Part shown: positions 24,001-30,000 of the stretch, in pieces
Numbering within the stretch: the stretch's first letter is position 1
How the letters are laid out: each line of letters starts with the position of its first letter
NCBI RefSeq assembly: GCF_030013595.1
Contig: NZ_CP122768.1
DNA from: Escherichia coli
GTDB taxonomy: Bacteria > Pseudomonadota > Gammaproteobacteria > Enterobacterales > Enterobacteriaceae
Direction: 5' to 3' (one strand)
Length of the DNA stretch: 64,000 nucleotides
Program-made: the position numbers

Positions 24001-27000
24001 CCTGAAGAGCAGGAGCCGTGCTGTCCGCCCGACGGACCACTAAACAAAGCGATTAATTATATCCTGAACCGGCGCGATGAACTGAGCTGCTTCCTGAGTG
24101 ACGGAGCCGTGCCCCTGGACAACAATATCTGCGAGCGTGCTATCCGCCCGGTGGTCATGGGGCGGAAAGCATGGTTATTCGCCGGTTCACTGATGGCCGG
24201 GAACCGCGCGGCACAGATAATGAGCCTTCTGGAAACGGCAAAACGTAATGGTCTGGAGCCGCATGCCTGGCTGACAGACGTTCTGACGCGTCTACCGGAG
24301 TGGCCGGAAGACCGACTGGAAGAGTTGCTGCCCCTTGAGGGATTTACCTTCTCCGGATGAGTGATACCTGCCATCAGGTGTTCGTGCAGCGGGCCATAAC
24401 CCGCAGTCGGGAGTTGAACGCCTGACGACAGGAAATGAGCCAGAGCAGCGACCACGCGGGCTGACAGTGAGTCAGAACCTGAATCAGCCCGGAGCCATTC
24501 CCGGGGCTGTACTTCATCACCTGCCATCAGTACCCGTGTCAGTACTTCGCGACCTGACGCAATTACCCGACTCAGTTCTTCAGAACCCGCCTCCGATACC
24601 AGCCTGGCGGTCGCCCCTGTGCAACAAAATAAATCAACCATCGTCAGACGGTGATCAATCGTATGCGCTGCCAGTGGCTCGCCTGAAAAATGCGTCAATA
24701 TGAGTTCGCCGGAACAATACCTCAGTTCTTCAGAACCCGCCTCCGATACCAGCCTGGCGGTCGCCCCGGCGCAACAGAATAAATCAACCATCGTCAGACT
24801 GCGATCATTCGTATGCATCGCTGATGATGCGCCCGAAAAACGCGTCAATATGAGTTCGCCGGAATATTACTGACGACACGGTTTGTAGTTACGTTCCTTC
24901 GGTGAGTGAGTACCTGTGCGTCAGGGTAACGCAATCAGTTCAGGTTTAGCGGGGTGTCAAGTCGGTTTGGCTAACCGACCGCAGAATTAACTGTACCTTT
25001 AAAGGTCGCCCCCGATATATCTGCCTGTCAGACATATCGCCGATTCGGTATCTCACTACATAAAACTCCTTAAAAAACAATGCGATTCTGTTGGTACGAA
25101 GCTTTCAGTAAGTCAGTCCGGAGAAGCGCCAGTACGATACAGAATGAGGTTGAAAAAAACGTTCACGTCTGGTCACTTCTTCAAATGTTAAAAAACATCT
25201 CGTAAAGAGCCAGTTTATGCGGGTTCGTTGAGTAGACGTGCGAGCGTCACTTTGTCAGCTTTAACGCTGACGAAAGTGACGCCCGCACAGCTTCAAACTC
25301 CACATGCACACGCAAGCGACCAAATTTCAAATGGTCTTATGCCGTGCGCACAGTCATAAGAAGCGCATGCGGAAAGTCAGAAAATATCTTAAGACGCAGA
25401 TTTTAAAGGCGTTTTTATGCCAGTCTGCCGGGAATACACAGTAGTCCGGTTGTCCGGAAGCACCACGGTAATCCGAAGGAAAAATCAACGTACCTCAATC
25501 ACCGTAGTGATATCCGTTCCCAGAGGCTAAACGGATGTACCACCATAAAGGCATCCTCTTTCAGGCTACGAGGATATTGCAATCACCCGAAGGCGTTTCT
25601 CTCAGATTGCTGAAACATTGGCTGGCAGTCACCCGAAGGCGTCCCTCTCAGACTGCTGGAACATTGGCTGGTCGCAAAAGCGACAGTTAATGCAAATACA
25701 GGTTAACAAAAAGGGAAATCTGCCGTCAACCCAACCATATGAACATGTTGATTTCATTATGAATGTGATGTTCTAATATAAATTAATCAGTAACTTCATA
25801 AAAAGAATATAAGAAACAGATAATGCATGTATTTACACACATATCAGCACAATGATAGATTACCACCCCAGAAACACGATAAAGGTATAATTATGGAATT
25901 TTCCGTTATTTTTTTCTGGGTTATCACTGGTCTTATTACCATCTTATTCTTAAAATCAATAATAACCGATCTAATAAAAAACCTAAACAAAACAGACATA
26001 GCGTTATATATATTGGCATTTTTATCAGCCGGATATACATTCCAGTATATTTACAATGACAATATATTTTCAGAACTATGGGGAGTTGGCCTGTTTGTTA
26101 CTCTGATAGTACTGAATATAGTATTTAATCTCTTTTTTAGACTCTTATTCATTCTCTCGAAAATGATATTAATGTCACGACATATAAGAAAGATGCAAAA
26201 AAAACTAAAACAGACGTCTGTGCCTGATTTTATTTATTATTCAATAGAAAAACACAACAAATATCCCATATATGTATTACACATGCCATCAAACAATATA
26301 ATTGAAATAGGCTACAATATAATAAACACCGATCTGGTCATTGGCGAAAAAATTCATTTCAGGACACTAAGCAATCGTTCTTTATATTTTAACCTCACCC
26401 AACCCCCATTAATCGCGACAATAAAAGATGATGTGTTTTGCACTCTTCATGATTACTATAACCACAATAATGAAACGAAATCCACTATTGACAATTACAT
26501 ATCAAAAATAAAGGATAATCATAATACCCCATGGTTATTAAACAACGAAAATGTTCAGGAATAAAAAAAGAGACAATTCCCGAGATAAAACAAAAGAGCA
26601 TAAACATATGAACCGGAAATTCTATTTCAAAAATATCCTGTGGGGAATGTGCCCCATTATAATATCCATATTGCATCTGATATATGACACACCAACAGAA
26701 GGGTAATGACTCCAACTTACTGATAGTGTTTTATGTTCAGATAATGCCCGATGACCTTGTCATGCAGCTCCACCGATTTTGAGAACGACAGTGACTTCCG
26801 TCCCAGCCTTGCCAGATGTTGTCTCAGATTCAGGTTATGCCGCTCAATGCGCTGAGTATAACGCTTGCTGATAACGTGCAGCTTTCCCTTCAGGCGTGAT
26901 TCATACAGCGGCCAGCCATCCGTCATCCATACCACGACCTCAAAGGCCGACAGCAGGCTCAGAAGACGCTCCAGTGTGGCCAGAGTGCGTTCACCGAAGA

Positions 27001-30000
27001 CGTGCGCCACAACCGTCCTCCGCATCCTGTCATACGCGTAAAACAGCCAGCGCTGACGTGATTTAGCACCGACGTAGCCCCACTGTTCGTCCATTTCAGC
27101 GCAGACAATCACATCACTGCCCGGTTGTATGCGCGAGGTTACCGACTGCGGCCTGAGTTTTTTAAGTGGCGGAAAATCGTGTTGAGGCCAACGCCAATAA
27201 TGCGTGCACTGGCGCGACATCCGACGCCATTCATGGCCATATCAATGATTTTCTGGTGCGTACCGGGCTGAGAGGCGGCGTAAGTGAACTGTAGTTGCCA
27301 TGTTTTACGGCAGTGAGAGCAGAGATAGCGCTGATGTCCGGCGGTGCTTTTGCCGTTACGCACCACCCCGTCAGTAGCTGAACAGGAGGGACAGCTGATA
27401 GAAACAGAAGCCACTGGAGCACCTCAAAAACACCATCATACACTAAATCAGTAAGTTGGCAGCATCACCAACAGAAGCATCGATAAAAGTTGACTTATTT
27501 CTGATACTCAGTGGCCTGGCCCTTCCTTGTTCAATATACCTGACAAAAACAATCACACTAAAATACACATCCATATCATTCTGGAAAAAACCTCTTTTCT
27601 GGTCTTATGGTATATATCATTTTCATCTTGTTTATATAATGACATGTATAGTTTTAGCAATACCTTCTGCAATTATCGTTTTATTCTTTCACTTTTATCA
27701 AAACATCACCAGAAACTGGAAGTGACAACCGCAATAATGAACATAAAAAGGCAAATCAGAATGGCAGTAAATCAATAAAGTACCATTTCATATGAATCAT
27801 CAGAAAAACGGTGGACGCGACATCCAGCACGAGGCAAAACACAGCAACAAAATAAGCCGGATATCGCGCCCTGTACTTTTCTAACTCAACTCCCGGCATT
27901 GTGCAAGTTTTAATCGCAGGTGGATTCAGAGCCACGCCCCCATTGATTCAGCCTGAAGACACGTATATCCTTGGAGAAAGCAGGAATCTCATTGCTGTGA
28001 AATTCCTTACAGAATCTTCAGCCCCATTTTATGGGGCTTTTTTTGGTGCCCCCACGCTGTTACCACACTTTCGGGATGCGAATAAAAAAGCCCACAGTTT
28101 TTACACTGCGGACTTTTGTTTTTTCTTTGTGATTTGTGTGCAAGGGTGCGACTTTCGACCGAACCTTTGGCAACCGGATAGCGGGGACTGTTGTCCCCGC
28201 TGCGGTTTCTTACGGTTTACACTGCAAGAACGCCGCAATTTCCGACCACATGAAGCTTACCCTGAATTCACACGGTGATGCGTGTAACACCCAGACGGTC
28301 AGCAACATGGTCAGGCATAACATGCCCACAATGATCGTTTTTTGCGGCATAGCACTTGCTCCTTTTACAGAGAGGCGCTAACCTTCCACTTGCTGAAGGT
28401 AGATGGTCAGGGCCTCGGGTTAACGTTTAAGTTGACTCGGGGCCTTTCCACATCCGGCCTTCAGGTAATCCTTCCAGCCGTCAGCCGAAAGGCACCCGCG
28501 CGTAATGTACTGGTTTTCAGAGAGGTCCGCAATCTTCCGGTGACGAGATCATCTGCACACGCCCCGGTGGGACGGGCTAACGGTATATTCAGGTGCAGGA
28601 TCTCTCTGTCTGGTGCGTTTTTAAATTGTCAAACGCACCCTGGCGGCAAAATCAGCCACCTTTTTTCGCATCAACAAAACGCCCAAAACGCTGGGTAAAG
28701 CGTGCAACATTACCTTCTGAAGCGACAGTTCTCAGTTTACCTGTATAAAACGGATGCGACTTAGAAGAAACGTCAATTGTAACATATGGGTAAGTTACAC
28801 CATCCAGTTCAATTACCCGGTCAGTTTTGATCGTCGAACCGATCCTGAAGTACTCATCAATACTGGTATCGTGAAATACTACTGTACGGTATTCCGGATG
28901 GATATTCGGTTTCACAACAGTTTTCCCCCTTTAAGTGAAAATTCCGCATAAAGGTACATATTCAGACGGTCAGATTCAACTGTCTGTTCTTATAACCTCA
29001 CTCTCTTTCAGTATTACAATATGTTATATAATTATAAACTGGACTTCCCGAAAAAATCCATTAAATAAGAAGCGAGCCGTTGCGGAGGCTTGCTCTCTCC
29101 TTTAACCTCATGTGCAATATCCGTAACGCGCTCACATAAATCATCATCTGATAATATAACAACACCCATTATTTTATTCTGACCTAAAAACTTCTTATGA
29201 AATAAACGTTTACCCGACGTATCTGATCCCGCTGTTTTTACCTGTATCCTTTAACATACTTGAGAAGCCCGCTGAAAAAATATACCGTAAAGGCGGTTCT
29301 CTGTCTTCCATAAACCTGTCGGATAAGAAGGGCATTAAATGAAAACCAAAAAAGTTATGATGATTGCACTGGTCAGCTCTGCGCTGGCTCTTTCAGGATG
29401 TGGAGCCATGGGCACAGCGATCAAAAAACGAAATCTGGAAGTAAAAACCCAGATGAGTGAAACCTGAGGTAGCCTGAGTTTAACGGACACTCCTTCCTGA
29501 AATAGAATGGCATCAGAAGGAGCTAATAATGAGCAGAAAAACCCAACGTTACTCTAAAGAGTTCAAAGCCGAAGCTGTCAGAACGGTTCTTGAAAATCAA
29601 CTTTCGATCAGTGAAGGCGCTTCCCGATTATCTCTTCCTGAAGGCACTTTAGGACAATGGGTTACCGCCGCCAGAAAAGGGCTCGGTACTCCTGGTTCCC
29701 GCACGGTGGCTGAACTGGAATCTGAAATTCTGCAACTGCGTAAGGCGTTAAATGAAGCTCGCCTTGAGCGAGATATATTAAAAAAAGCAGCTGTAGATTC
29801 AATCTGTCAATGCAACACCCCTTTCAATTATCTCTTTCACTGCCCGCGACGGTATCGGTTATCAGTTTGACCTGCTGGCTAACGGTGAAACCGTACTGCG
29901 TGATGCATCCGGCGAAAAACGCATCAAGGGTGAAAAAGACGGTCGTATGCTCATGAATGTTGGCCTGAATGCGGAAATTCGCGACAACATCCGCTTCGGT

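Follow-up and report, generated by a model that had tools for sequence, protein, structure and literature searches.

An IS1-interrupted gene of the colicin E1-type immunity family and its membrane-protein neighbour on the tellurite-resistance/urease island of Escherichia coli

The locus described here occupies positions 25893-27725 of a 64,000-nucleotide stretch of Escherichia coli DNA (RefSeq assembly GCF_030013595.1, contig NZ_CP122768.1), the whole of which is referred to as the window. It comprises two genes for membrane proteins, gene 1 and gene 2, the second of which is cut by a copy of the insertion sequence (IS) IS1. The two genes lie on the same strand with a spacing of 43 bp, and no terminator was found between them. 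The features of the locus are listed below, with lengths in amino acids (aa), open reading frames abbreviated to ORFs and transmembrane helices numbered TM1 to TM3; coordinates are those of the window unless preceded by an L number, in which case they refer to the locus so designated.

25893-26564, plus strand: gene 1, intact by ORF and translation, with its ATG at 25893 and its stop at 26562-26564; 223 aa, 29.8% GC
26608-26701, plus strand: 5' part of gene 2, codons 1-31, encoding TM1 and the start of the TM1-TM2 loop; contains the left copy of the duplication
26702-27469, minus strand: complete IS1, 768 bp, with the canonical ends GGTAATGAC...GCATCACC
27139-27414, minus strand: insA of IS1, an intact ORF
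26717-27220, minus strand: insB' of IS1, an intact ORF, with the A6C frameshift motif
26694-26701 (left copy) and 27470-27477 (right copy), no strand assigned: 8-bp target-site duplication AACAGAAG flanking IS1
27478-27725, plus strand: 3' part of gene 2, codons 32-113 and the stop, encoding TM2, a basic cytoplasmic loop and TM3 with the conserved LAIP
28020-28038, plus strand: terminator-like hairpin followed by a T-run, a consensus match only; possible end of a gene 1-gene 2 transcript

The element between the two parts of gene 2 has the properties of a complete IS1, namely a length of 768 bp, terminal inverted repeats, insA and insB' with the A6C site, and a short duplication of the target. 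Both copies of AACAGAAG are perfect and excision of IS1 together with one of them yields a 113-aa ORF, in agreement with the initial annotation, which had described an intact duplication and a frame restored on excision. The same annotation had described gene 2 as a hydrophobic protein of roughly 112 aa cut by IS1; the cut is confirmed, while the length is corrected to 113 aa and the start to the ATG at 26608 rather than 26609. The final four bases of IS1, CACC, also occur just to the left of the repeat in the target, so that the alignments overlap by 12 nt, and the duplication is counted as 8 bp on the assumption of a canonical 768-bp IS1. Comparison with IS1-free alleles bears out the restoration: the restored 3225-bp stretch aligns without gaps, at 99.97% identity to ETEC1747 and 99.88% to O157:H7 PV15-279, and the restored 342-bp gene 2 is 100% identical to alleles of several complete genomes. 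In its interrupted state gene 2 encodes a 32-residue stub, MNRKF...DTPTE (31 native residues) followed by Gly and a stop at 26704-26706, which retains the first TM helix only.

By its sequence and layout, the restored gene 2 is a member of the E1-type immunity family. BLASTP aligns its product end to end with ColE1 Imm (Imm/Cei, PF03526), taken from plasmid ColE1; both proteins are 113 aa long and share 25% identity (E=1e-6, the E-value of a single pairwise comparison). When a profile of gene 2 variants, together with the plasmid ORF described below, was compared by hhalign with a profile of 16 PF03526 proteins, the match had a probability of 99.0% and an E-value of 6.4e-18 over 107 columns. 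In an alignment of eight sequences M1, Y6, P48, S50 and P94 are invariant and two motifs are common, (K/R)(F/Y)Y at the N-terminus and LAIP at the C-terminus, the aligned N-termini reading MNRKFYFKN in gene 2, MSLRYYIKN in ColE1 Imm and MNKKFYFSR in the ORF of M8 plasmid D. The hydropathy segments of gene 2 (10-26, 38-54 and 85-101) match in position those of ColE1 Imm (9-25, 33-49 and 92-108), with P-x-S in TM2 and LAIP in TM3 of both proteins, and the charge pattern is alike, both proteins being basic at the N-terminus and in the TM2-TM3 loop. At 113 aa with three segments, gene 2 also lies within the size and topology of the family (~95-120 aa, three TM helices). E1-type immunity proteins are three-TM proteins of the cytoplasmic membrane that act through intramembrane helix-helix contacts with the toxin, whereas those of the A type have four TM helices (PMC10906532). 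Despite these likenesses the identity between gene 2 and ColE1 Imm is only ~25% and their settings differ, as gene 2 is not carried by a Col plasmid and has neither a convergent colicin gene nor a nearby gene for lysis. The same profile retrieves Cki, Cfi and Cti (immunity to colicins K, 5 and 10; PF17500), which like gene 2 are small three-TM proteins with an AIP motif at the C-terminus, but are 96 aa long, far more distant, and absent from the single-sequence tblastn results at E<=1.

Database searches place gene 2 among the same proteins. In tblastn against plasmids the best match (37.6% identity, E=7e-13) falls on E. coli M8 plasmid D (NZ_CP010195, 4962 bp), in a minus-strand ORF that carries no annotation; weaker matches lie on plasmids of Klebsiella, Hafnia, Serratia and Edwardsiella, in genes named 'colicin E1 family microcin immunity protein'. 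A word-indexed protein search returned close E. coli variants only, some of them named 'colicin immunity protein' by NCBI, and the sole PHROG match was to phrog_22982 (E=1.3e-4), a family of unknown function. In NZ_CP193491.1 the Prokaryotic Genome Annotation Pipeline (PGAP) names the intact gene 2 a 'colicin E1 family microcin immunity protein', with its start at M14.

The ORF on M8 plasmid D is the nearest relative of gene 2. It encodes 117 aa, is of the same length class and layout, and recurs on four further near-identical 4.98-kb plasmids. It lies between a gene for a colicin-like pore-forming protein (3440-4666, plus strand) and a lysis gene (98-238, plus strand), on the opposite strand to both, which is the classical position of the immunity gene in a colicin operon. 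The M8 ORF therefore has the colicin-adjacent, opposite-strand placement that gene 2 lacks and, unlike gene 2, a colicin partner; an identity of 38% between the two does not predict cross-protection. No colicin or lysis remnant was found by tblastn with the M8 colicin, colicin K and a lysis protein in the window or in the loci L007, L011 and L020, and gene 2 is therefore regarded as an orphan immunity gene. A profile search of 5.8 billion proteins brought up no immunity relative beside a colicin that was closer than that of M8 plasmid D. Among E. coli plasmids, orphan immunity genes are a common finding and have been read as protection from competitors (PMC12546727). Gene 2 resembles them in being an immunity gene kept without its toxin, but whereas those plasmid orphans were defined by an identity of >99% to known immunity genes, gene 2 is divergent and is carried on a chromosomal island derived from an integrative and conjugative element (ICE), in 11% of complete E. 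coli genomes. As to the M8 plasmid D colicin itself, it has 408 aa (L003 3440-4666), is apparently uncharacterised and is found on 5-kb plasmids of mouse and human E. coli; its pore domain is nearest to that of colicin Ib/Ia and its N-terminal part is colicin K/A-like. The M8 immunity ORF (4684 across the origin) is not in the gene table of its record, the PLSDB table being incomplete.

Gene 1 encodes a protein identical to WP_000397130.1; in L001 and L002 PGAP places a gene at matching coordinates and labels its product 'hypothetical protein'. It had been described as a three-TM protein with an Asn/Ile/Lys-rich tail, and both features were found, as three hydrophobic helices at the N-terminus and a C-terminal half rich in these residues. 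It is predicted to be an inner-membrane protein in which the three helices are followed by a soluble C-terminal domain of ~115 aa, and the strongly basic stretch after TM3 predicts that this domain is cytoplasmic; the predicted topology is N-out/C-in. An exhaustive phmmer search identified ~26 representatives of the family, 22-44% identical and of the same length, all annotated as 'hypothetical' and all from Enterobacterales (E. coli, Salmonella, Serratia, Atlantibacter, Intestinirhabdus and Entomohabitans), which share a conserved N-terminus, MDRSLIFFY, the three TM helices, the basic stretch and the conserved ~115-aa domain. AlphaFold2 modelling is confident, with a predicted local distance difference test score of 82 over the whole protein and 87 over the C-terminal domain. 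No match to gene 1 was found in Pfam, NCBIfam, PADLOC or PHROG, and none to its C-terminal domain in Pfam; nor was a known fold found, Foldseek against AFDB50 returning only the gene's own uncharacterised family. A ubiquitin-like domain was considered on account of a profile match among PDB sequences to polyubiquitin, through a 'KTLTGR' hairpin motif, and was discounted because no single stretch passes alone, the E-values grow with the number of repeats and there is no beta-grasp match. Gene 1 is under purifying selection, with a ratio of nonsynonymous to synonymous substitution rates (dN/dS) of ~0.35 for the gene as a whole and 0.2 for the C-terminal domain (p=9e-6). It is an intact and conserved membrane protein of uncharacterised function that happens to lie upstream of gene 2.

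The initial annotation had suggested that the two genes may form a membrane toxin/immunity, holin-like or abortive-infection module, one partner of which IS1 removed under counter-selection of a toxic function. The genes do have homologues and are conserved as a pair at close range: in the close alleles carried by ICE-like elements, at 80-92% aa identity, gene 2 follows gene 1 without exception. Conservation of the pair is nevertheless confined to alleles at least 80% identical. A 44%-identical homologue of gene 1 occupies the same slot in a sister ICE and is followed there by an unrelated soluble protein of 105 aa, and the gene 1 homologues of Salmonella, Entomohabitans and Serratia are solitary, with unrelated neighbours. 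No gene 2-like neighbour was found beside gene 1 homologues at 22-44% identity, and no gene 1 near the gene 2 homologues on Col, Klebsiella and Edwardsiella plasmids. Since the more distant members of the gene 1 family stand alone, the pairing is not obligate. Co-transcription of the two genes or some functional link between them may nonetheless exist.

A toxin/immunity, holin/antiholin or abortive-infection module made up of gene 1 and gene 2 is very unlikely. The two genes are adjacent, AT-rich and close together on one strand, and occur together in every carrier genome and in the diverged alleles, as partners in a module would; yet each has homologues that lack the other, and neither protein matches the PADLOC models. 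The word immunity was apt in that gene 2 falls in an immunity family, but the homology is to colicin immunity proteins and not to toxins, and the protein resembles those that act against imported colicins rather than against the product of a neighbour, so that a toxin/immunity pair with gene 1 is not supported. Moreover, loss of an antidote beside an intact toxin gene should kill, and in the window gene 1 encodes the wild-type protein. It is also possible to regard gene 1 as an accessory, or as a second immunity-type membrane protein, in a two-component anti-bacteriocin module with gene 2. Linkage of the genes is tight wherever this subtype of gene 2 occurs, purifying selection acts on the inner-membrane protein of gene 1, and the island carries further anti-colicin functions in its ter cluster and Esr41. 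This arrangement is extremely unlikely for two reasons: first, the gene 1 family consists mostly of solitary chromosomal genes among unrelated neighbours, and in the sister ICE the slot downstream of gene 1 is filled by the unrelated soluble protein. Second, the known E1-type immunity proteins act alone.

The distribution of the insertion bears on whether it reflects selection. Gene 1 is carried by 588 of 5426 complete E. coli genomes (11%) and gene 2 by the same 588, in all of which (588/588) the gene 2 region is full-length and uninterrupted; the IS1 junction in gene 2 was found in none of the 5426. The copy of IS1 in gene 2 is the only one in the window and, over the ~16 kb that can be aligned with ETEC1747 (17700-34736), it is the sole structural difference. 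Its sequence is identical at 768 of 768 positions to annotated, multi-copy elements of UMNF18, O139:H1, O141:H4 and ETEC17xx strains, an isoform typical of porcine enterotoxigenic E. coli (ETEC) and Shiga toxin-producing E. coli (STEC). The insertion had been taken to be recent, and it does look recent, since the duplication is perfect, both halves of the gene are identical to intact alleles and no genome in the set shares the junction. The isoform and the near-identity of the island to that of ETEC1747 suggest a recent hop of IS1 within a genome of porcine ETEC/STEC-like type.

The only other IS-disrupted allele of gene 2 that was found comes from a single draft assembly, GCA_001606595.1 (L035 3240-3323), in which a contig breaks off about 100 codons into gene 2 and finishes with the terminal repeat of an IS1203/IS629-type element. 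An IS1203 annotated in O157:H7 is bounded by this repeat, and no IS1203 junction in gene 2 was found among complete E. coli genomes. A second, independent insertion in gene 2 is what counter-selection of a toxic module might produce; however, the disrupted alleles are rare singletons, one of them known from one draft genome, with none among the 588 complete carriers, and gene 1 is left intact while its supposed partner is destroyed. The proposal of counter-selection is therefore not upheld. IS1 prefers AT-rich targets, and the locus has 30% GC as compared with 48-52% in its flanks. Two rare and independent IS insertions in IS-rich pathotypes would fit neutral insertion into AT-rich DNA.

Taken together, gene 1 and gene 2 are probably independent AT-rich cargo genes and not a functional pair, gene 2 being an orphan E1-type colicin immunity gene into which IS1 has recently inserted, most simply by a neutral hop. 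Several observations weigh against this interpretation. The 43-bp spacing without a terminator between the genes, and their co-occurrence in all 588 carriers, are what a functional pair would show. Pfam PF03526 covers only residues 33-70 of gene 2 and is not significant (i-E=0.019), and no NCBIfam hidden Markov model matches at E<=1; from the partial match to the one and the lack of a match to the other, gene 2 and the M8 ORF are taken to be a divergent subgroup of the family. Gene 2 is unannotated in most RefSeq records, and purifying selection among its close alleles is marginal (dN/dS 0.32-0.58, Fisher p=0.05-0.26). No cognate colicin is known for it, the nearest immunity protein with a partner being just 38% identical. 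Its start codon is also uncertain, as PGAP uses M14 and the poly-A tract upstream varies among alleles; M1 is favoured because it aligns with the N-termini of the family. The poly-A run (26551-26610 in the window, L002 8832-8912) differs by one base between alleles, so that a different upstream ATG comes into frame, and the resulting ORF is 132 aa long here as against 139 aa in O157:H7.

Some of these observations would also suit the view that gene 2 is a decaying relic, non-functional in any carrier, left over from an old colicin operon and silent in AT-rich, probably H-NS-bound DNA, in which case IS1 changed nothing. The missing annotation in most records, the marginal selection and the want of a known cognate colicin are consistent with decay, as are the missing strong Shine-Dalgarno sequence at gene 2 and the occasional frameshifted or IS-cut alleles in draft genomes. 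However, a relic is unlikely: the frame is of full length in the alleles examined, up to ~10% protein divergence, and all family-conserved residues and the three-TM layout are retained. Furthermore, even the diverged ICE relatives hold no colicin or lysis remnant, which favours acquisition as an orphan over decay in place, and orphan immunity genes are widely maintained (PMC12546727).

Gene 1 and gene 2 probably sit in a variable slot of the ICE-derived tellurite/urease island (SpLE1 or OI-43/48 type). The intact gene 2 protein of 113 aa is predicted to span the inner membrane with three TM helices, its N-terminus and its basic TM2-TM3 loop both facing the cytoplasm. If it works as ColE1 Imm and related proteins do, it would be free to diffuse within that membrane and, by helix-helix contacts, to block the channel domain of a single, specific incoming pore-forming colicin, so that carriers may be protected from the toxin of a competitor without the cost of making a toxin. 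In the window an IS1 isoform, regarded as active from its multiple identical copies in porcine ETEC/STEC, inserted after codon 31, in the TM1-TM2 loop, leaving the 32-residue stub and presumably abolishing the immunity function, and the strain would be expected to have become sensitive to the cognate colicin.

The window is the tellurite-resistance/urease island of enterohaemorrhagic E. coli (EHEC) and porcine ETEC, of the SpLE1, OI-43/48 type. Upstream of the locus lie terW and nested IS66 elements; downstream are a hok-family gene, a type B L31 paralogue, traT and autotransporter fragments and the ure operon. The ICE relatives of the locus carry a XerC/D-type integrase, ArdA/ArdC, TraU and TraG. 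Directly upstream of gene 1, at 25534-25685 and 24905-25058 (both minus strand), lie a strong match to the STAXI RNA motif (134 bits) and a match to EFASI that at 48.9 bits narrowly misses the gathering score; in the related ICE loci L007 and L011 the equivalent stretch holds the same short ORFs, which lie near a gene for a XerC/D-type integrase and the anti-restriction genes ArdA/ArdC. A hok/sok-like type I toxin-antitoxin locus lies some 500 bp beyond the end of gene 2; it comprises, at 28210-28350 and 28339-28497 (both minus strand), a 46-aa ORF of the hok/gef toxin family, annotated Hok/Gef in homologous records, and an overlapping match to a sok-like antisense RNA that scores 50.5 bits in Rfam, under the gathering score of 59. 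The type B (zinc-independent) L31 paralogue, which is ykgM-like, lies at 28652-28915 (minus strand) and occupies the same slot in the sister ICEs L020 and L022; no recognisable ORF for an L36 paralogue (ykgO) lies downstream of the island copy. Within the island ure operon there is a match to the 5' ureB small RNA (sRNA) at 33179-33457 (plus strand, Rfam 86.5 bits). Further along, an RtT RNA (55144-55278, plus strand) and a lone CRISPR-DR4 repeat (55381-55408, minus strand) adjoin a ClpA-sized ORF (55623-57914, minus strand), and this group probably indicates the clpA-serW-infA flank on the chromosome; the CRISPR repeat would be a vestige at the site where the island integrated. Esr41, an EHEC-specific sRNA, is found at 2257-2330 (minus strand, Rfam 103 bits) and shares the island with the ter cluster and gene 2.

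The ter cluster is reported to confer resistance to pore-forming colicins (the PacB phenotype), and Esr41 is reported to repress cirA, which encodes the colicin Ia/Ib receptor, and to give resistance to colicins Ia and Ib (PMC8193136, PMC5286369). Both lie in the same window as gene 2 and both counter pore-forming colicins, although their mechanisms are unrelated to that of gene 2. Their presence on the island that carries gene 2 is suggestive. It is tempting to go further and propose that the island stacks independent defences against pore formers, namely the ter cluster, Esr41 repression of CirA and the divergent orphan gene 2, so that gene 2, perhaps aided by gene 1, protects ~11% of E. coli from a colicin of the ruminant or pig gut and loss of gene 2 through IS1 would make this strain newly sensitive, but this extension is unlikely.

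Gene 2 is a new, divergent and island-borne member of a known family, one already named by newer annotation, and the insertion of IS1 is an ordinary event. Routine as it is, the insertion provides a natural knock-out of gene 2, for which near-identical IS1-free islands in sequenced strains are available for comparison. Gene 1, for its part, represents a small family of membrane proteins in Enterobacterales that has not been studied before. If gene 2 does give protection from a real colicin, EHEC and porcine ETEC would have, on one of their major pathogenicity islands, a determinant of competitive fitness that most annotations have missed; a chromosomal, ICE-borne and divergent case would be added to a picture of orphan immunity that has so far been based on plasmids, and there would be a bearing on colicin-based control of STEC in livestock.

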